Positions 31,341 to 62,302 of a stretch of DNA of 64,000 bases are shown one piece after another (positions within the stretch are counted from its first letter, which is position 1; each line of letters opens with the position of its first letter). Source of the stretch: a virus; UHGV virus genome UHGV-0348865. One strand, 5' to 3'. Both the position numbers and the translations under genes were made by a program. The notes below the pieces were generated by a model. The model was given only the letters and a program-made list of their open reading frames with translations. It ran no database searches and was not told the origin of the DNA.

Positions 31341-31419
31341 GGGGGTGTACCTCACCCGTCTTCTAAACGGGCGTTAATCGAGTAATTGGAGTATGCAGGT
31401 TCGAGTCCTGTCTCCCCCT
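31341..31419 (+). ncRNA. tRNA-like element with canonical T-arm; possible tRNA (anticodon-like loop CTTCTAA would give UCU/Arg) but D-arm not resolved by eye
   Basis: T-arm GCAGG-TTCGAGT-CCTGT; 7-bp acceptor-like pairing GGGGGTG/CTCCCCC; flanked by 10-nt inverted repeat AGAGTTCTTA/TAAGAACTCT. Confidence 0.4.
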
Positions 31420-47631: not shown

Positions 47632-48182
47632 AGAAAAAGAAGAAAGTGTTTGCATTCGATATCGAGAGTAATGCACTGTACGATGACATAACTAAAGTAT
47701 GGTGTATCTATATCTTCGATGTTGAAACTGGTGAAAGGTGGGGCTATCGGCCTCACCAAATTGAAGACGGGATTCGTAAACTGACAGAAGCAGATGTACT
47801 AGTTGGTCATAATATTATTGACTTCGACTTACCTGCTCTGAAAAAGATGTATCCCTCTTTGATTAAATATAATTTTAACGTCTTTGACACTTTATGTCTT
47901 AGTCGATATCTTAAACCTGACCGTATTGGTGACAGTCCTGAGTATCCGAAAGGCGACCCTAGACGTGGCCCAAGAGGTCACGGCTTGAAGCAATGGGGTG
48001 AGTTCTTAGAGGAACTTAAAGGTGACTACGGTGAGCAAGAGGAAGCATGGGATGCTTTCACTGAAGATATGTTTACTTATTGTGAACAGGACGTTAACTT
48101 GACTGTTAAGGTTTATCTTTTCTTGTGTGAACTCACGGGATTTGACCCTTACGACCCACCTTCATTATATTGGAAAATGTAA
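47625..48182 (+). CDS. DNA polymerase 3'-5' exonuclease domain (T7 gp5 N-terminal homologue) as a separate ORF
   Basis: FDIES (Exo I) and [11 protein letters not shown] (Exo II) motifs align with the T7 DNA polymerase N-terminus; overlaps helicase stop. Confidence 0.75.
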
Positions 48183-48183
48183 A

Positions 48184-49545
48184 ATGATTGTTATCCCGAT
48201 TAACCAAATTGAAGATAAGGTTGCTCAACAACCTGATATCGCTGTTGGTCGTCACTTCATTGAACAGTTGATTAACAACAACTTGATTCCAGACGGTATC
48301 TGTCCCATCATTACTGGGGGGGCTGTTCGTGATGCTATCCTTAACAATATAGCCCCACATGACATTGATATCTTTATTGTCAGAGGACAAACACCAAGAA
48401 CTCAAAACACTTTCATCCCAACTGATCATTGGCAAGAGCTTGGACGGGAGATTGAAAGCAATGTGAAGGAATGGCTAGAGTCACAAGATATTGAATATGC
48501 ATCACTTCTTGCTGAAGCTACAAACGAATCCTATGCTGGGGGTTCTCAATTAACATTCACTGATATTATTGAGTTTCAGTGGAATGGGGTTCGTATCCAA
48601 TTCATGTTTAATTATCCTACTTCTATCGAAGAGGTATTGGATAATTTTCCTATGATGTGCCGTGGTGCGATGACTCTTGACAACTTATTCATGACTTCTC
48701 ACGGATACTTGGCTATGACTGCCCCTTGTCCAGTGGTTGTTTCTAGTCGTGAAATCAGGTATGTTCACAAGAAGTGGCCTAACTCTCAGGTATTGAGGTT
48801 TTCCTCTCCAGCAGTTGCACATCAATACATGGCCCAAACTCGATATCTTCCTACACCTCAACCAGTTAATCATCTGGTCAACGAACAAGGTCAGGTTGCT
48901 CTTCTTGAGGATACAACAAGTGCTCAATATTGTGTTAACCGTGACATGAGTCGATTCTTTGGAATCCCCTATGAAGAGATTCAGCTAATGTCAAGCACAC
49001 ATGGCTCTAGCCAGATTTATGCGTATTGGTCTGAAGGGTTGACAAATTTAACGACTAACACGGGCGGTGATCTGCTTGGTCGAGAAGATGAACCTAACCG
49101 ACACAATGCAATTGAAGGGGTGTTTGTAGCCCCTGCAATGCGTCGAGCACAAGAGTCACGAAGAGTAAGTCCTACTCGTAGAACATCTTTTGAAGAGGCT
49201 CTTGGTGTTACTGGCGATTCATTTGAGCGGTGGTTGTCTAGACGTTCTAATGGTCGACCAAACGGCTTAAACGTTAGTGCACGTCAGTTCTCTGGTCAGG
49301 GTTTTGCTGTTGGTGATATCAACGCACCTGTTAGGGCTGTGTGGGCTGATGAAGGTGTGACCCTAGATGTGGTAGGTAGTCTTGATATTCCTTCTCATGG
49401 GGAACTTGCTGAGACTGTCAACCGCAGCCTCGCTGATCGGTTTATTGCTAACAACCCTGAAGTATTAGAACCTCAAACCCGTACAGTTCGGTTTGCCGAT
49501 GAAGCGGGTCGTGGAATCTCTTTTGATATGGAAACAAATAACTAA
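48184..49545 (+). CDS. nucleotidyltransferase of the CCA-adding / poly(A) polymerase head-domain type
   Basis: motif ITGGAVRDAILNNIAPHDIDIF matches GGxVRD...DxD signature. Confidence 0.5.
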   Translation: MIVIPINQIEDKVAQQPDIAVGRHFIEQLINNNLIPDGICPIITGGAVRDAILNNIAPHDIDIFIVRGQTPRTQNTFIPTDHWQELGREIESNVKEWLESQDIEYASLLAEATNESYAGGSQLTFTDIIEFQWNGVRIQFMFNYPTSIEEVLDNFPMMCRGAMTLDNLFMTSHGYLAMTAPCPVVVSSREIRYVHKKWPNSQVLRFSSPAVAHQYMAQTRYLPTPQPVNHLVNEQGQVALLEDTTSAQYCVNRDMSRFFGIPYEEIQLMSSTHGSSQIYAYWSEGLTNLTTNTGGDLLGREDEPNRHNAIEGVFVAPAMRRAQESRRVSPTRRTSFEEALGVTGDSFERWLSRRSNGRPNGLNVSARQFSGQGFAVGDINAPVRAVWADEGVTLDVVGSLDIPSHGELAETVNRSLADRFIANNPEVLEPQTRTVRFADEAGRGISFDMETNN

Positions 49546-50579: not shown

Positions 50580-50906
50580 ATGTTAGATTTGAGTAAAGTG
50601 GCCCCGCCCACTGAAGAGATTACAAAATCCAAGGTGATGCAACAGTTTTATCATCGTGATATGCTTGGTCGCTTTATCAAGAATCGTGATGTTGTTGCTT
50701 GGTCTATTGGTAATCAGGGATATCTGTTGAAGGTTCTTCAGGTTACAGGTTCAACTGCTAAGAGAGTTAAGGTGTATGACCCTGAAATGGGGCGTTCTAA
50801 GTCAGTAGACCCACAGAACTGCATCGTAATTACCCAGCAGATCCTAAGTAATCTAGAAAGAAATGTAGCAAATTCTACTGAGTTAGAAGGAGAAGACCCT
50901 AAGTGA
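50580..50906 (+). CDS. hypothetical protein
   Basis: 108-aa ORF. Confidence 0.35.
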   Translation: MLDLSKVAPPTEEITKSKVMQQFYHRDMLGRFIKNRDVVAWSIGNQGYLLKVLQVTGSTAKRVKVYDPEMGRSKSVDPQNCIVITQQILSNLERNVANSTELEGEDPK

Positions 50907-51397
50907 TTCCAAAGGAATTGGAAGGGAAGATTGATGTAACAGAAGATGGTAGAGTATTTACCGTAAAGAGTAGAAGGTTTTTAACCCTCCACACTAATGG
51001 TGCCTATTATAGAGTCACTATTTACTTTCCTGACGGATTAAAGAATTTCTATGTCCACAGGCTGGTTGCTAGTAAGTACATACCGAACCCTGATAATCTT
51101 CCGTGTGTCAACCATAAGGATGGCAATAAACTTAACAATCATAAAGACAATCTTGAATGGTGTACCCACCGAGAAAACTCTCAACATGCATCATCATTAG
51201 GTTTGATGGTACAGAGGTTTGGAGAAGACAATCCGCAGTCTAAACTTACTCTAAAAGATGTAGAGTACTGTAGGAGAGTTTATATTCCTCGAGATAAAGA
51301 GTTTGGAGGCTCTGCCCTTGCAAGACGTTTTGGTGTCTCTCAGCAAGTGATATCAAAAGTTCTACTTAATCAAACTTGGAGGGAATATAATGCATAA
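50903..51397 (+). CDS. HNH homing endonuclease with C-terminal HTH-like region
   Basis: VNHKDGNKLNNHKDNLEWCTHRENSQH motif; paralogous to 54759..55253. Confidence 0.6.
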   Translation: MIPKELEGKIDVTEDGRVFTVKSRRFLTLHTNGAYYRVTIYFPDGLKNFYVHRLVASKYIPNPDNLPCVNHKDGNKLNNHKDNLEWCTHRENSQHASSLGLMVQRFGEDNPQSKLTLKDVEYCRRVYIPRDKEFGGSALARRFGVSQQVISKVLLNQTWREYNA

Positions 51398-54758: not shown

Positions 54759-55253
54759 GTGATTCCTATTAGAAGTTGGCTTTCTTATGATGAAAAATCT
54801 GGAAAGCTCTTCTTTACTTCATCTGCAGAAAAAGGTCGTAAGTGGAATAAGAGCCATCCCGGCAAAGAGGCTGGTCATATAAACCGAAAAGGTTATATAG
54901 GCATCTTTTTCGAGGGTAGGCATTGGAAAGCTCACAGACTTATAGCAACACATTTGATACCAAACCCTAACAACTATCCAGAGATAAATCATATAAATGG
55001 AATTAAATCTGATAACAGGTTGGAAAATCTTGAATGGGTGACTCCTTCTGAAAATGTGAGGCATTCATTTGATATAGGTTTAAATGTTGGAAAGGTTCGC
55101 GACCTTAATGCAGCCACCAAATTATCCTCTGGAGATGTTGTAAAGATCAAACAGATGTATGTGAAGGGTTCTAGGGATTTTGGCTCTAGAGGTCTTGGTA
55201 AGTTGTTCGGTGTGAGCCATACAGCTATACTCCATGCTTTAAAGGAGCTTTAA
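54759..55253 (+). CDS. HNH homing endonuclease with C-terminal HTH-like region
   Basis: INHINGIKSDNRLENLEWVTPSENVRH motif; paralogue of 50903..51397. Confidence 0.55.
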   Translation: MIPIRSWLSYDEKSGKLFFTSSAEKGRKWNKSHPGKEAGHINRKGYIGIFFEGRHWKAHRLIATHLIPNPNNYPEINHINGIKSDNRLENLEWVTPSENVRHSFDIGLNVGKVRDLNAATKLSSGDVVKIKQMYVKGSRDFGSRGLGKLFGVSHTAILHALKEL

Positions 55254-56467: not shown

Positions 56468-57820
56468 GTGAGCAACCCGGACGCTCTTCCATTTTTGACA
56501 GAGATGACTGTCGCTGATATAATCTCTAAGCAAGCAAAGCACGGAGTGAGTTTCAACCGAAGAAATGCTCGGTGGTATGTTCACCTCCTTAAAGAGATTA
56601 TTGTTAATATTGACAGAGAGTTGATTCCTCTCTTACCCAAGATGAGATTAGATGGCTCTACTTATATGAAGCCGTTTAAGAAGTCTGGAGCTTTACAGAA
56701 GTGGCCTCAAGCCTATTGTGATAGGGTTGGGCTGAAGAGAGAAGACATTGGTGGAGCTTTCACCTGTGTCGAATACGTAGACTTTGACCCATCGAAAGAT
56801 GCACGAGTTAAAGAAGCTCTTATGGATGAGGGCTTTCTTCCTCCAGAGTTTAACGTATCTAAGAAGCCTTGGAATACTTTCGAAATTAAGAAAGATATGA
56901 GAAAGTATGGAACATACCAAGCATGGTATACTGCTTGGATGCGAGGCAATGCTAAGCAGAAGCAGACAGCTGAGATGGTTGACGCTGATATTAAGAAGTT
57001 CTTAGAAAAGCATTTCAGGTTTAAAACTAAGAATTACATGAAGGCTTACGTGTTTGGTTTAGGTTTAAACCCTAACCGACGTAATCCTGTAACGTTTGAT
57101 GAGATTAAGAAAGCACTAGCCACATCAAACAAGTGGCCTACAGCTCCTACAAACCTCGAGGAGACTCTTGAAGAAGGGTTAGGGGGTGAGCTAGGGAGTG
57201 TCGGAAGTTTGCTTAAGAGACGCGTTGTAGCGGCTCACAGGCTGGGTCTTATCAGTGGACTTATAGCAAAGGAACGCGAAGATGGTAAACTTTCGGCAGA
57301 AGCTAACAGCTGCGCTACGCCAACTTTTCGATTCAAACATCGTATCGTGGTTAATATTCCCTCCCGTGGTTTGTTTGGTCACGAGTGTCGCAGTTTGTTT
57401 GAGTCTGACTATAACTCAGACAGTGATCACTCTCGTCCTTTCGTTATTACTAACGTTGTTCCTGATGGTTGTTATATACGAAAAGGTACTAACGTAATTT
57501 ACGAGAAAGGTAAGCCGGGGAAGAAAGACAAACCTGTAGGTGCTTACAAATATTACATACCCGCTGGTAAAGAAGTATTCTTAGGGTATGATGGTTCTGG
57601 GCTTGAACTTCGTATGCTCGCTCACTACCTCATTAAAGAGTGTAGGGATATGCTTGCTGAGGCAATCGAAGAGAACAACCCAGCTAAGAAAGCTCTGGCA
57701 GAACGTGGTTTAGCTTCTGCTATTATGTATCGTGATATTCTCCTTGAAGGTGATATTCACTCCCACAACCAGAAACTTGCTGGTCTTCCTACTCGTGACA
57801 ATGCTAAAACGTTTATCTGA
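56468..57820 (+). CDS. DNA polymerase (T7 gp5-like, family A) polymerase-domain fragment 1
   Basis: GYDGSGLELRMLAHY and LEGDIHSHNQKLAGLPTRDNAKTFI align with T7 DNA polymerase; ORF stops right after TFI. Confidence 0.8.
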   Translation: MSNPDALPFLTEMTVADIISKQAKHGVSFNRRNARWYVHLLKEIIVNIDRELIPLLPKMRLDGSTYMKPFKKSGALQKWPQAYCDRVGLKREDIGGAFTCVEYVDFDPSKDARVKEALMDEGFLPPEFNVSKKPWNTFEIKKDMRKYGTYQAWYTAWMRGNAKQKQTAEMVDADIKKFLEKHFRFKTKNYMKAYVFGLGLNPNRRNPVTFDEIKKALATSNKWPTAPTNLEETLEEGLGGELGSVGSLLKRRVVAAHRLGLISGLIAKEREDGKLSAEANSCATPTFRFKHRIVVNIPSRGLFGHECRSLFESDYNSDSDHSRPFVITNVVPDGCYIRKGTNVIYEKGKPGKKDKPVGAYKYYIPAGKEVFLGYDGSGLELRMLAHYLIKECRDMLAEAIEENNPAKKALAERGLASAIMYRDILLEGDIHSHNQKLAGLPTRDNAKTFI

Positions 57821-57933
57821 CGTAAATGGATACTTCGAGAGTAATCTCGTCGATTAAATTGGGTGAACTCAGGGAAACTCTCTAGTAGACAATCCTGAGC
57901 CAAGCAAGTATTCTATAGCAACTCAACAAGGAG

Positions 57934-58440
57934 GTGCTTATGGAATATACAACTGTAACTAAAACTAAAGAAGAACAGACTGCCGAGGCAGGTAAATACC
58001 CTCAAGGTCAGTTCAACCCAAAACCTTGTCGTAATTGCTCAAAAGATTTTCAACCAAATGCACCATCTGAACATTATTGCTCTGATGGATGCAAAGATAG
58101 AGGCTGGAGAAATTCATACTTCAAACGAATGTATGGAATCACAGCCGATGATTACGAAAAGATGTACGCTGATCAGGATGGGAAGTGTGCTATCTGTAAG
58201 GGCGAAGGGTTTGTAATGGCAACACATCACAGAATTAGACTTGTGGTTGATCATTGCCATGAATCTGGAGTAATACGTGGTCTGTTGTGCCACAACTGCA
58301 ACAGAGCTTTAGGGCTACTGAAAGATGATGTTAGCCGATTAGAAACAGCTATAGAATACTTGAAGGTGCAACGACTATCCGAAAGGAGTACACCGGAAGC
58401 TGATGCCGGTGGAAGCGCCCAACCCCTCGACAGAGGGTGA
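57934..58440 (+). CDS. HNH / endonuclease VII-like homing endonuclease inserted within DNA polymerase gene
   Basis: Cys-rich N-terminus, motif HRIRLVVDHCHESGVIRGLLCHNCNRALG (His-Me finger). Confidence 0.65.
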   Translation: MLMEYTTVTKTKEEQTAEAGKYPQGQFNPKPCRNCSKDFQPNAPSEHYCSDGCKDRGWRNSYFKRMYGITADDYEKMYADQDGKCAICKGEGFVMATHHRIRLVVDHCHESGVIRGLLCHNCNRALGLLKDDVSRLETAIEYLKVQRLSERSTPEADAGGSAQPLDRG

Positions 58441-58496
58441 TGATATAGTCTATCCTACACGGCGACGTGTAGCAGTTCATAAGAGAACGGGCAGGA

Positions 58497-59018
58497 GTGT
58501 TGCGGCTCCTGTCGAATATACGAGATGCATTCAACTACGGTGCTGGTGATGCTAAGCTAGGTTCAATTGTAGGAGGCGGGGCTGACGAAGGTTCAGTGAT
58601 GCGAGCACGTTTCTTGGCAGAGAACCCATGTATTGCAATCCTTATTGATCGTATGACAGAAAAGGCTGCTCAGGGATACTTGATTGGTGTTGATGGTCGT
58701 AAGATTACAATGAGACGAGATGCCACTGGTAAAGTTATGGTTCATAAAGCTCTTAACACACTCCTGCAATGTGCTGGTGCTGTTGTTATGAAATATGCTA
58801 TGATGTTCCTAAACAAGTGGATTGAGAGAGATGGAGTTCGTTGTGCTAAGGTAATTGATATGCACGATGAAGGTCAATTCTCAGTAAACCGTAATGATGT
58901 ACAGAAACTCAAAGAGCACACCGAGCTTTGTGTTAAGAAGGCTGGTGAGTATTTGAACATGGAGTGTCCTCTGGCTTCTGATTGTCAGATTGGATTAAAT
59001 TGGATGCATACGCACTAA
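58497..59018 (+). CDS. DNA polymerase (T7 gp5-like) polymerase-domain fragment 2
   Basis: GTG start; AFNYGAGDAKLGSIVGG and KALNTLLQCAGAVV align with T7 YGFLYGAGDEKIGQIVGAG and ALNTLLQSAGAL. Confidence 0.8.
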   Translation: MLRLLSNIRDAFNYGAGDAKLGSIVGGGADEGSVMRARFLAENPCIAILIDRMTEKAAQGYLIGVDGRKITMRRDATGKVMVHKALNTLLQCAGAVVMKYAMMFLNKWIERDGVRCAKVIDMHDEGQFSVNRNDVQKLKEHTELCVKKAGEYLNMECPLASDCQIGLNWMHTH

Positions 59019-59620: not shown

Positions 59621-60013
59621 ATGAATATTGGTTTAGACTATGATGACACTTACACAGCAGATAGACGTCTGTGGAGAGATGTGATAGGTTTAATGAAAGA
59701 GTACGGACATGATGTAAGATTCGTGACTTTCCGTTTCTCAGAGCCTAATGGTTATGATAACGTGGATATCCTCTACGATGCAGAGACCCTGCAAATCCCT
59801 GTCATCTTTTGTAATGGTGTGCAGAAGGATGATGTGTGTCGACAGTTAGGTTTCTTTGTAGATATCTGGATTGATGACTTCCCTGTTGGAATCCCCAAAA
59901 AGGACCACCTAGATGGTATGCTGAAGGGTGTGAGACTTAATGACCTTAGGGCAGCACCTCCTGTAGAAATAGCCGCTCCTGTGTACTCTGAAGAGCCTTT
60001 GGTGATACGTTAA
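59621..60013 (+). CDS. HAD-like phosphatase (possible deoxynucleotidase)
   Basis: N-terminal IGLDYDDTYT resembles HAD motif I DxDxT. Confidence 0.4.
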   Translation: MNIGLDYDDTYTADRRLWRDVIGLMKEYGHDVRFVTFRFSEPNGYDNVDILYDAETLQIPVIFCNGVQKDDVCRQLGFFVDIWIDDFPVGIPKKDHLDGMLKGVRLNDLRAAPPVEIAAPVYSEEPLVIR

Positions 60014-60360
60014 TAAGGAAGATTAAATGATTTGGGTTCACACTTATAAGATTGGAAAGAAAGTAATTACTGTTGTACATCACTCTGAAGAAAGCGCTAT
60101 CGCTTCTCAAGAAGTTCTTAAAGGTGAAGTTAAAGTATACGCTGAAGTAAAAGGAACAGAAAATGATTAATAAGATTAAAGATAATGAATATTTACTTAA
60201 CTCTTCTATTTTAGATAATGGAAATACTATTGATTTCATTACTCTTTCAGAGTTAAAAGAGTTAGTAGATTCCTTATATTCAGAGGAACAAAATCGTTTA
60301 TTACAAGAGTCTCTTAGTGGAGACTATGTTTGTGATGGGTGTTTAATTTAAGAGGTCTTT

Positions 60361-60864
60361 ATGGCTGAAGTTTATTTTGCAGGAGATGGTCATTTAGGTC
60401 ATCGTAACATCTGTAGTTTTCGTAAGCAATTTAAAAACATTGAAGAACACGACAAAGCAATTCTAGCTGCATTTGATCATGTAACTAAGCGTGATAAAGT
60501 CTTCTTTACTGGTGATTGGGTGTTTGAAAAGTATGCCCTTGATATCATCGCTGAAGTAAAAGGGGATAAGCATCTAGTCTTAGGGAACCATGACAGGTTA
60601 GAACTTCTCCCTGATATGATGAAAGTCTTCCGTAGAATCTCTGGTGATTATAAATATAAAGAGTTTTGGGTAACTCATATTCCTATTCACACTGATGAAA
60701 TGAGAGGGAAGTTTAATATTTATGCTCATACCCATAATCATGTAATTGATGATTGGAGATATTTCTGTACATCAATGGAGCAAATTAATTATAAAGCTGT
60801 TTCTCTGCAAGAGATTAGGAAGGTTTTCGATGAAAGAAGAAAAGAACAAGATCTCATTATTTAA
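60361..60864 (+). CDS. metallophosphoesterase (calcineurin-like)
   Basis: GDGHLGH, GDWV, GNHD and HTHNH motifs in canonical order. Confidence 0.6.
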   Translation: MAEVYFAGDGHLGHRNICSFRKQFKNIEEHDKAILAAFDHVTKRDKVFFTGDWVFEKYALDIIAEVKGDKHLVLGNHDRLELLPDMMKVFRRISGDYKYKEFWVTHIPIHTDEMRGKFNIYAHTHNHVIDDWRYFCTSMEQINYKAVSLQEIRKVFDERRKEQDLII

Positions 60865-61555
60865 AGAACCTGTAGTTTATAAAGACTCTATCAGAGATAA
60901 ATATAATGAGATGTTAAAGAAACAAGCTGATTCTAATCTTCACTATCAGAGGATAGTAGAACAATCTAACTTTAAAGGTTTACTTGAATGGTAACTTATA
61001 TCCTTTACTTTTTAGCTTTCTTAGGAATAATCTTTTTATCTATTATTCTTGAATTTGGTTTAAGTAAATTAGTTAATTATTTAGGTAATAAGTAATTAAT
61101 ATTCTTTTAAATAGAGAATCAAAGTCCCTAGGAGTCCCTACAACCTAAATCAAGGAATCCTTAATTCTCTATTTTTATCTCGCAGGTGGCTCCTGCCCTT
61201 CCGGTAGTCTCTCAATTTCTTACAAACTTATGAGAGATTGTCGTCTGCGCCTTATCGTCGTCAGTCCCGTGCAATAACTTTATCAGCTATAACTTATATA
61301 CATTATAGCACTTAGAGATATACTACCATGAAATTTAATCATAAATATGCAGCTACAGAAAAAGCTAGAGCTTATGTAACTGCTAGACAGTCTCGGGTTT
61401 ATAAGAGACAGTCTCCAACAAATAACTCTAAAGAGACTTTTGTTTGGACAAAACCTACTACCTTCCGGTAGTTCCTACACTATATATGTAATGTATATTA
61501 TACATAACCGCTCAAAGAGAGCAACAATCTTTCAAATTAAATAAGGAAATTAATA

Positions 61556-62302
61556 ATGAGCATGATCCCAACTATCGCAACTGCTTCCCGTAAATCCAAC
61601 TACGATGTAATCCCTGATGGTGAATACGAAGCACGTATCGTTCGTGTAGTAGGTTTGGGTGTTCACAATCGTGACCCTTGGATTGACCCGAAGACCAAAG
61701 CAGTAACTCCTAAGAATCCGGCTTTCCGTATGGATTTAGCTTTCGAGCTGATTGGTGTTGATGCTACTGGTAAAGATTCCGATGGTAAGGCATTAGAACC
61801 ACGTCCTGCTTGTCAGTTCAAGAGCTATGATGTAAACCCACGAGCTAAGAACTCTGGTATTCTTGATCTTTGCAAGATGATTGACCCAAGTATTCAAGCA
61901 CTGAAAGGTGATCTGTCTTGGTTCAAGGATGTTCTGTTAGGTCAGCCTGTTAACATTCTGGTTAACTCTTATACTAACAAAGCTGGTGAAGTTAAAAACT
62001 CCATCAAGACCATTTCTCCAATCCCAACCAAATATCGTGCAGCAGTTGGTGAAGCTCGCAGTCCTCTGGTATTCTTCGAACCGTATGCTGAAACTGACGA
62101 GAACGTAGCATCCTATCAACTGATGTTCCCGTTCCAGCGCAACCTGCTTACTCAAGCTAATGACGCTAAGAACATGCCTCTGGCTGGTCGTGAAATTACT
62201 CGTGCTTCTGAAACAGAACAGAAAGAAGCTACTCCTTCAATCCCTACGATTGATAAAGAGCCTGCTTCTACTTATGAAGATGATAACGACAGCCCTTTTT
62301 GA
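61556..62302 (+). CDS. candidate single-stranded DNA-binding protein (T7 gp2.5-like)
   Basis: acidic C-terminal tail ending in Phe (YEDDNDSPF) as in T7 gp2.5; otherwise by context. Confidence 0.4.
   Translation: MSMIPTIATASRKSNYDVIPDGEYEARIVRVVGLGVHNRDPWIDPKTKAVTPKNPAFRMDLAFELIGVDATGKDSDGKALEPRPACQFKSYDVNPRAKNSGILDLCKMIDPSIQALKGDLSWFKDVLLGQPVNILVNSYTNKAGEVKNSIKTISPIPTKYRAAVGEARSPLVFFEPYAETDENVASYQLMFPFQRNLLTQANDAKNMPLAGREITRASETEQKEATPSIPTIDKEPASTYEDDNDSPF

Follow-up and report, generated by a model that had tools for sequence, protein, structure and literature searches.

Nucleotidyltransferase of the window and its relatives

The gene at 48184-49545 of the 64,000-nucleotide stretch of DNA analysed here (UHGV virus genome UHGV-0348865; the whole stretch is called the window) encodes a nucleotidyltransferase (NTase) of Pol-beta type, made up of a head alone (aa 1 to about 268) and a fast-evolving tail of about 185 aa that is predicted to be disordered. 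It was placed in a superfamily of minimal NTases with class-II-like heads that is specific to phages, in which it represents the Gordonclarkvirinae; the NTases of 170-290 aa found in T7-like phages are its closest relatives there, and Gad2, an anti-Gabija protein, is a more remote one. The window is a Kuravirus (phiEco32/SU10-like, Gordonclarkvirinae), an Escherichia coli podophage. The gene has already been catalogued as 'nucleotidyltransferase', and it is the placement that is new.

In the list of open reading frames (ORFs), the open frame covered 48127..49545 (+), and the ATG at 48184 gave a protein of 453 aa with the N-terminus MIVIP. The GTG at 48127 was considered as the start and dropped in favour of this ATG; homologues begin with MI.IP, and the start residue was the same in homologues from three genera. 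These coordinates were those given in a preliminary description of the DNA, and they proved right. The window protein scored 862 bits against PHROG 12715 ('nucleotidyltransferase'), and tblastn located the gene in 98 phage records; in 70, the match covered the full length with 80-94% identity. The identity was 93.8% to the protein of CHD5UKE1 and 93.6% to that of Bas91. Its product was detected by mass spectrometry of an SU10 lysate. The family is small; when 1.84 billion representatives were searched exhaustively with HMMER, only 32 proteins were returned at E<=1e-10, of 72-482 aa (274-482 aa for the full-length ones).

The weak matches of the same search were phage proteins of 190-290 aa carrying GGAVRD, D.DIF, Q-[LVI]-[MI] and FD[WY]x[IL]C, and the window protein matched PHROG 1614 with an E value of 1.4e-7. 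When the window family was aligned with these small phage NTases by hhalign, a probability of 99.3% over 130 columns was obtained. The structural search agreed: in a Foldseek search of BFVD, the Kuravirus MN05 orthologue was followed by small NTases of T7-like phages (Aeromonas phiAS7, Providencia PS3, Vibrio VEN, Pseudomonas LKD16 and Pectobacterium DU_PP_II) with E values of 3.8e-8 to 5.5e-5 and template modelling scores of up to 0.64 on the target, better than any match in the PDB. The PHROG 1614 proteins (LKD16, phiAS7, Ralstonia DU_RP_I gp11 and Emajogi gp22 among them) have the same core, the same motifs and the same basic helix after it, and their genes also adjoin those of primase/helicase and DNA polymerase. 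They differ in being only 170-290 aa long, without the long tail of some 185 disordered residues that follows in the window protein, and in keeping the Asp of FDxxIC, where the window family has an invariant Pro. The preliminary description had taken GGAVRD...DIDIF to be specific to tRNA nucleotidyltransferases and poly(A) polymerases; this was not so, as the same GGAVRD...D.DIF is found in the small phage NTases, which Pfam files under Gad2.

SPbeta-like phages encode Gad2, a protein of 400 aa that counters Gabija (Yirmiya et al., preprint 10.1101/2023.05.01.538930). Deletion of gad2 made SPbetaL7 sensitive to Gabija, a Brevibacillus laterosporus homologue blocked Gabija, and an NTase domain was predicted in Gad2 by AlphaFold (10.1101/2023.05.01.538930). 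In precomputed family assignments, the Pfam Gad2 model, PF26128, was assigned to 30/44 of the close clusters, its match to a Kuravirus protein 88% identical to that of the window (P0010) being flagged as 'weak' (E between 1e-5 and 1e-3); it was also assigned to all but one of the 120 listed Gad2 homologues, the exception being a 226-aa fragment. A profile of 60 Gad2 sequences was then built from the preprint supplement (10.1101/2023.05.01.538930). By hhalign it matched the small NTases with 96.1% probability and the window family with 73.3% (E 3e-5, 109 columns) with the motifs in register. Gad2, which is phage-encoded too, thus has N-terminal NTase motifs at the same positions as the window family (AGGA..., D.D[IV]YF, LQ[MI]IH and FDFTVC). 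In Gad2, on the other hand, GGAVRD is without its R-D, there is a folded C-domain of about 215 aa that is missing in the window NTase, and the gene lies in a variable anti-defence locus (10.1101/2023.05.01.538930), whereas the window NTase occupies a fixed replication slot.

Conserved core, active site and C-terminal tail

Residue conservation was read from an alignment of 26 representatives with identities down to about 30%, and an AlphaFold2 model was built on an 11-sequence alignment. The predicted local distance difference test (pLDDT) score was mostly 75-93 up to about residue 206 and 53-71 for residues 207-268; between genera, BLAST detected only the first 234-261 residues, at 32-39% identity, and the core itself was 32-40% identical across genera. 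The GGAVRD...DIDIF motif was present as the preliminary description had reported (Table 1). Position 127 was acidic in 26/26 (D in 17, E in 9) and was followed by the invariant I128; from the topology of Pol-beta NTases, D127 is likely to be the third carboxylate. A strand with Q-[LM]-[IM] was common to the window family, the small phage NTases and Gad2 in the hhalign alignments. FPMMC was aligned with FD[WYF]x[IV]C of the small phage NTases and Gad2, the Asp being replaced by the invariant Pro156; FD[WYF]x[IV]C is itself similar to RRDFTINA (motif B) of class II enzymes. In the REIRYVHKKWP helix, R189 was present in 21/26, position 190 was acidic in 26/26, and Y193 and K197 were invariant; this helix sits at about the place of the class II motif D helix, with a sequence that is not EDxxR. 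Given the invariance of G45, G46, R49, D50, D60, D62, F64, Q139, P156, Y193 and K197, and an acidic residue at 127 and 190 in every representative, the NTase is, as judged from sequence conservation, almost certainly an active metal-dependent nucleotidyl transfer enzyme with D60, D62 and probably D127 as its carboxylates. The core is acidic, with an isoelectric point (pI) of 4.8.

The preliminary description had also remarked that the protein is about 450 aa long with a C-terminal half unlike that of standard enzymes, and here it was confirmed. The pLDDT was below 50 at residues 269-417, 424-440 and 445-453, and by hhalign the C-terminal half matched neither the body and tail of class II enzymes nor the Gad2 C-domain. 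The tail was unalignable between genera save for a few islands; within Kuravirus it had indels of up to 52 columns, as against none in the core, and family members of 274-285 aa ended soon after the core without any C-terminal extension. One of the islands, WSEGL, is a candidate docking motif from its conservation: W-[ST]-x-x-L was found in 7/9 representatives of at least 367 aa, the other two having YTQGL (P0061) and no match (P0070). The tail has an acidic end, and many family members carry W, F or Y among their last few residues. Such a long disordered tail with a conserved island and an aromatic/acidic end is like that of replisome tethers, and the Asp of motif B has been lost, as might be expected of a catalytically dead replisome scaffold with a retained NTase fold. 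This explanation is nevertheless extremely improbable, since the metal-binding and GG-loop residues are all invariant in the 26 representatives, which is hard to explain without catalysis.

Table 1. Features of the NTase gene, its neighbours and the tRNA-like gene in the window
Feature	Position (nt)	Strand	Basis or remark
NTase coding sequence, 453 aa + TAA stop	48184..49545	+	ORF list, PHROG, tblastn
Conserved acidic core of the NTase (aa 1-206; Pol-beta fold, beta-alpha-beta)	48184..48801	+	pLDDT, alignment, pI 4.8
Motif A part 1, GGAVRD, aa 45-50	48316..48333	+	G45, G46, R49, D50 invariant 26/26
Motif A part 2, DIDIF, aa 60-64	48361..48375	+	catalytic carboxylates D60, D62 and F64 invariant 26/26
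TDIIEF strand, aa 126-131	48559..48576	+	model strand 125-133; column counts
IQFMF strand, aa 138-142	48595..48609	+	Q139 invariant, M141 25/26
FPMMC, aa 155-159	48646..48660	+	hhalign alignments, column counts
REIRYVHKKWP helix, aa 189-199	48748..48780	+	model helix 188-197; alignment
Less conserved subdomain, aa 207-268	48802..48987	+	pLDDT 53-71; BLAST-detectable homology between genera stops inside
Predicted disordered, fast-evolving tail, aa 269-453	48988..49542	+	long-tailed branch only; length varies by indels
WSEGL island, aa 282-286	49027..49041	+	tail comparison of long-tailed representatives
Arg-rich tail patch incl. RRVSPTRRTSF, aa 318-366	49135..49281	+	pI 11.8
T7 gp4-type primase/helicase, 596 aa	45841..47631	+	ORF list; Bas91 orthologue annotation; DnaB_C in relatives
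Pol A 3'-5' exonuclease subunit, 185 aa	47625..48182	+	Pfam DNA_pol_A_exo1 2e-8; PHROG 38876/403
dCTP deaminase, 177 aa	49555..50088	+	Pfam DCD 4e-33; 9 nt after NTase
Atypical tRNA-like gene	31341-31419	+	Rfam tRNA 33.2 bits; missed by ARAGORN

Comparison with class II CCA-adding enzymes

The preliminary description had called the product a CCA-adding or poly(A) polymerase-type NTase, and this was borne out in its head fold and motif A only. All 32 matches found by Foldseek in the PDB at E<=1e-3 were class II CCA-adding enzymes, A-adding enzymes or poly(A) polymerases, and GGxVRD followed by DxD was found with its six key residues invariant in 26/26. The best match was not to CD-NTases, and the protein was thus not placed among the cGAS/DncV-like enzymes, an outcome that the description had named as contrary to its proposal. 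On the other hand, the window protein reached only 19.2 bits with Pfam PF01743 (PolyA_pol head), under the cut-off of 23, and three relatives 20.4-21.9 bits. When the PDB was searched by sequence, using either the protein or the family profile, only the 20 residues of motif A in CCA enzymes were matched, at an E value of about 0.4, and a search of NCBIfam gave no match. When hhalign was run against E. coli Cca and PcnB, motif A alone was aligned, with 19.7% probability against a class II profile that was thin, having two sequences.

In class II enzymes, RRD of motif B serves in ribose recognition, EDxxR of motif D is the amino-acid template that selects C and A, and the body and tail domains bind the acceptor/T arm of tRNA. 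RRD was absent from the NTase, its position reading [FM]-P-x-x-[CSA] with Pro156 invariant; the correspondence was drawn via FDxxIC of the small NTases and Gad2, which was set against RRDLTINA/RRDFTINS of E. coli Cca/PcnB by visual inspection. No EDxxR was found in the NTase family, where a helix with R189-[D/E]190...Y193...K197 stands at about the same place, and the alpha-helical tRNA-binding body and tail domains were also absent, residues 269-453 having a pLDDT below 50 and no match to Cca. The window NTase therefore has motif A (GGxVRD...DxD) in common with E. coli Cca/PcnB, the Bacillus stearothermophilus CCA-adding enzyme (1MIV) and poly(A) polymerase I (3AQL), but differs from all of them in being without RRD, EDxxR and a helical body and tail, at 12-17% identity. 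The stand-alone CCA head of Streptococcus pneumoniae, NP_344798.1 (PDB 2LA3), was a weaker structural match than the full-length class II enzymes; it is bacterial and, unlike the window NTase, has no disordered tail. The window NTase has a class-II-like head and, as judged from sequence and predicted structure, is not a bona fide CCA-adding enzyme, and the annotation 'class II CCA-adding enzyme domain' claims more than is known.

tRNA-like gene and the question of a tRNA role

It had been stated in the preliminary description that the phage carries tRNA-like genes. This was right as far as one atypical element is concerned (Table 1), but no tRNA was found by ARAGORN in the 64-kb window, and the element has no D-arm. 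Its acceptor stem has 7 bp, the D-arm is replaced by 4 nt, and the anticodon arm with the loop CUUCUAA (UCU, Arg) is followed by a variable region, which carries a conserved insertion of 20 nt, and by a normal T-arm. In a 4-sequence alignment, both the acceptor stem and the anticodon stem had compensatory changes. Its 3' end reads ...CCCCC-U-CUA with no encoded CCA, whereas the phi92 and 121Q counterparts encode G-CCA. Copies with 85-90% identity occurred in about 270 records of unrelated phages. They were seen in phi92-like, Felixounavirus, 121Q-like jumbo and Klebsiella phages, inside tRNA clusters, and were often unannotated or labelled tRNA-OTHER or tRNA-Leu.

By blastn, the tRNA-like gene was found in only about 4 Gordonclarkvirinae records, as against 98 with the NTase, and for the published Kuravirus vAPECPW12 no tRNA has been reported. 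Because the NTase is universal in the clade and the tRNA-like gene is confined to these few records, the NTase is not retained for the maturation of phage tRNA. The broader proposal of a tRNA 3'-end enzyme, which would add or repair CCA on tRNAs of host or phage after damage by host nucleases, or mature the phage tRNA-like RNA, draws on the identity of motif A with that of class II enzymes, on the class II heads being the best folds in the PDB, on the tRNA-like gene of the window having no encoded CCA, and on one small homologue that lies 2.4 kb from an Rnl2-type RNA ligase. We consider it quite unlikely nonetheless. PF01743 stays under its cut-off, RRD, EDxxR, body and tail are lacking, the short members are bare after the core, and the core is acidic; the tRNA-like gene is rare and vAPECPW12 has no tRNA; the host already has Cca; and the neighbours are genes of replication and nucleotide metabolism, not of tRNA or RNA repair. 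The tRNA role suggested in the preliminary description was thus not supported; repair of host tRNAs in particular is unlikely, neither the protein nor its gene neighbourhood speaking for it.

Genomic context of the NTase gene

The NTase gene was found between a polymerase piece and the dCTP deaminase gene, as described before, with the exonuclease subunit upstream and DCD downstream. The primase/helicase gene overlaps the start of the exonuclease gene, and the ATG of the NTase lies 1 nt past the stop of the exonuclease subunit. The order primase/helicase, Pol A exonuclease, NTase, dCTP deaminase was identical in every member checked, namely Bas91 (Kuravirus), Bas89, Bas87, the metagenomic P0061/P0062 (about 30% identity) and P0084 (274 aa, the most distant one checked), and the view that this position is unusual has therefore to be given up for the clade. 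Start and stop codons overlapped in several of these blocks, and the NTase gene is packed tightly enough with the genes of the block for co-expression. An ORF upstream of the small homologue P0098 was tested as a Pol exonuclease like that of the window and rejected. The operon also encodes ThyX and thioredoxin, with NrdD in relatives. The polymerase proper lies 8 kb downstream of the NTase and is itself split, and the preliminary description was right to speak of polymerase pieces.

Similar surroundings were observed for the small homologues. The gene lay between primase and DNA polymerase I in Ralstonia DU_RP_I, between primase/helicase and polymerase in Bordetella BB8, just upstream of primase-helicase-polymerase in Caulobacter KSC and about 1 kb upstream of primase-helicase in Vibrio VP506, and in Pseudomonas phage Emajogi the small NTase gp22 adjoins the primase/helicase gp23. 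In Achromobacter AchV4 (L018 3504-4981), the small homologue was followed directly by dUTPase. Two further contexts were uninformative. The dCTP deaminase belongs to the dUTPase superfamily, and the NTase-dUTPase pair of AchV4 parallels the invariant NTase-dCTP deaminase pair of the window.

Possible function of the NTase

The composite reading that we favour, with a probability of roughly one in three (about 0.35), is that of an NTase which acts during replication, is guided by its tail and protects the phage DNA. The loop of GG45-46, R49 and D50, together with D60, D62 and D127, would bind NTP-Mg2+ (NTP, nucleoside triphosphate), and nucleotides would be transferred, without a template, to the 3'-OH of a nucleic-acid end or to another acceptor arising as the linear phage DNA replicates. 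Because the core is acidic and without a substrate-binding body, targeting is probably supplied by the tail, for which the WSEGL island, the Arg-rich patch and the acidic/aromatic C-terminus would be suited. Such an activity would probably pay off by keeping nuclease-type immune systems of the host away from phage DNA during replication, in analogy to the distantly related Gad2, and not by housekeeping CCA synthesis on tRNA. The invariant active site and the fixed replication slot count for this reading, as do the fold and superfamily matches, the small homologues beside replication genes, the Gabija sensitivity of SPbetaL7 after deletion of gad2 and the unusual resistance of Gordonclarkvirinae to defences.

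Several points weigh against it. Typical anti-defence genes sit in variable islands, whereas the NTase is a strictly syntenic core gene, unlike island-borne anti-defence genes such as gad2 in SPbeta phages. Gene adjacency in the early and middle operons of phages is also weak evidence of a common function, and the acidic core gives, from its sequence, no sign of nucleic-acid binding. The link with Gad2 is remote. A narrow hidden Markov model (HMM) of the Firmicute Gad2 N-domain scored the window protein at 2.2 bits, within the range of shuffled sequences (top 6.5), while some members of the window family reached 15.1 bits, and the Gad2 C-domain (about aa 185-400) was not shared (hhalign probability 0.2%). 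Since the narrow HMM gave only this score and the C-terminal halves are unrelated, the link, as far as sequence comparison goes, is one of superfamily and not of membership; Gad2 membership in the strict sense was accordingly rejected, the window protein being missed by that model. The mechanism of Gad2 was moreover listed as unknown in 2026 (PMC12904381), so that 'like Gad2' names no reaction. Gabija was not among the systems in the BASEL study of Gordonclarkvirinae (PMC11990801), and none of the papers searched linked Kuravirus with Gabija.

We also considered that the NTase may be a replisome-tethered terminal transferase and as such a core part of T7-type replication modules. Its tail would dock on the primase-helicase/Pol A machinery, the ends of the phage DNA or nascent 3' ends would be extended by the head with nucleotides that no template encodes, and end-sensing nucleases (Gabija, RecBCD-linked systems, perhaps restriction) would no longer recognise these ends. 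This is distinctly unlikely; if true, it would amount to an enzymatic counter-defence by masking of DNA ends, and would explain Gad2 too.

A different target is proposed if host RNA or tRNA 3' ends are nucleotidylated during host takeover, shutting host functions or speeding RNA decay to feed the phage, for which poly(A) polymerase I and the MenT toxins are models. Two relatives are toxic on overexpression, SPbetaL7 Gad2 (10.1101/2023.05.01.538930) and Emajogi gp22, and the gene stands among genes of nucleotide supply, those of DCD and ThyX and, in relatives, also that of NrdD. That distant relatives are toxic when strongly induced is unspecific, though, and the protein has an acidic core and no RNA-binding domain, which leaves this proposal unlikely. 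An acidic core without a nucleic-acid-binding module would, in turn, fit a protein or small-molecule nucleotidylyltransferase, which would leave polynucleotide ends alone and work by AMPylation or NMPylation of a protein of the host or of a defence system, or by making an inhibitor from a nucleotide. Gad1 was shown to block DNA cleavage by Gabija, and the preprint argues from the predicted enzymatic domain of Gad2 for a mechanism differing from that of Gad1 (10.1101/2023.05.01.538930), a point in favour of such an enzyme. It is very unlikely all the same, as every one of the top structural neighbours transfers to polynucleotide 3' ends and no candidate acceptor is known.

The Gordonclarkvirinae are abundant E. 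coli phages of broad host range that serve in studies of phage therapy and withstand most of the defences tried on them (PMC11990801). The NTase is one of the few conserved replication-operon enzymes without an assigned role in them; it belongs with the phage-specific head-only NTases that recur beside T7-type replisome genes and are distantly tied to Gad2, and tractable E. coli phages with the gene (Bas87-94) could be used to learn what such enzymes transfer and onto what.

Restriction sites and DNA modification

The unusual resistance of Gordonclarkvirinae to tested defences and restriction has no known mechanism, and the pair of dCTP deaminase and NTase was raised as a modification idea by Humolli et al. 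(PMC11990801). Restriction sites were counted in the window, and 11 were present for EcoRI, 37 for EcoRV, 8 for EcoKI and 97 for EcoP1; loss of sites as the cause of resistance was thus rejected for EcoRI, EcoRV and EcoKI. Some other palindromes were strongly and selectively avoided, CCWGG occurring 8 times (92 expected), GATC 143 times (301 expected), GGATCC, GGTACC and GAGCTC 0 times each and CTGCAG and CCATGG once each; GATATC, AATATT and TTTAAA were over-represented. Such avoidance suggests, as a sequence signal, that to some enzymes at least the DNA presents ordinary bases.

A DNA or dNTP-pool modification pathway in which the NTase acts with the dCTP deaminase, and which would explain the restriction resistance, has in its favour the invariant adjacency of the two genes and the small homologue of AchV4 that adjoins dUTPase, besides the EcoRI, EcoRV and EcoKI sites that are present in DNA of phages resisting those enzymes and the proposal of Humolli et al. 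for the same pair (PMC11990801). The presence of ThyX and thioredoxin in the operon, however, fits ordinary dTTP supply, and the strong avoidance of CCWGG, GGATCC, GGTACC, GAGCTC and CTGCAG points to DNA exposed as ordinary bases. We know of no phage DNA hypermodification pathway with a class-II-like NTase, and the T7-like phages with homologues are not known for modified DNA. Modification is therefore rather improbable.

Other features of the region

The Pol A polymerase gene (56468-59018, +) was split by an insertion of about 706 bp relative to Bas91. The piece at 56468-57820 corresponds to residues 1-450 with 100% identity, and that at 58497-59018 to the C-terminal DNA_pol_A part; with the separate exonuclease subunit, the polymerase is thus in three pieces. 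The insertion carries an Endonuclease VII-type ORF at 57934-58440 (Pfam 7.3e-24), and no group I intron was found by Rfam at the gathering score. Two HNH_3 homing-endonuclease-type ORFs of 164 aa each were also found in the replication module, at 50903-51397 and 54759-55253 (+), the former missing at the syntenic Bas91 locus; 'homing endonuclease insertions' are mentioned in the BASEL paper (PMC11990801), in line with these ORFs.

The C-terminus of the primase/helicase (45841-47631) was an acidic tail with a terminal Trp. In T7 gp4, an acidic, aromatic-ended C-terminal tail contacts the polymerase, and the tail observed here is reminiscent of it. Upstream of the replication genes, at about 40000-45621 (+), a conserved cluster was seen (Bas91 locus L001 1-6438), the members of which are an amidoligase, a GlmS-like glutamine amidotransferase, a RimK-like ATP-grasp protein (43502-44695) and a gamma-glutamyl cyclotransferase (45202-45621, GGACT 3.4e-17). 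From these domains the cluster suggests a peptide or amine ligation pathway, and an ATP-grasp gene was located near the small NTase in Vibrio VP506 as well. The GC content dipped to 0.346 at 60001-62000, compared with about 0.42 elsewhere, and the sign of the GC skew switched near 22 kb, presumably where the direction of transcription turns.

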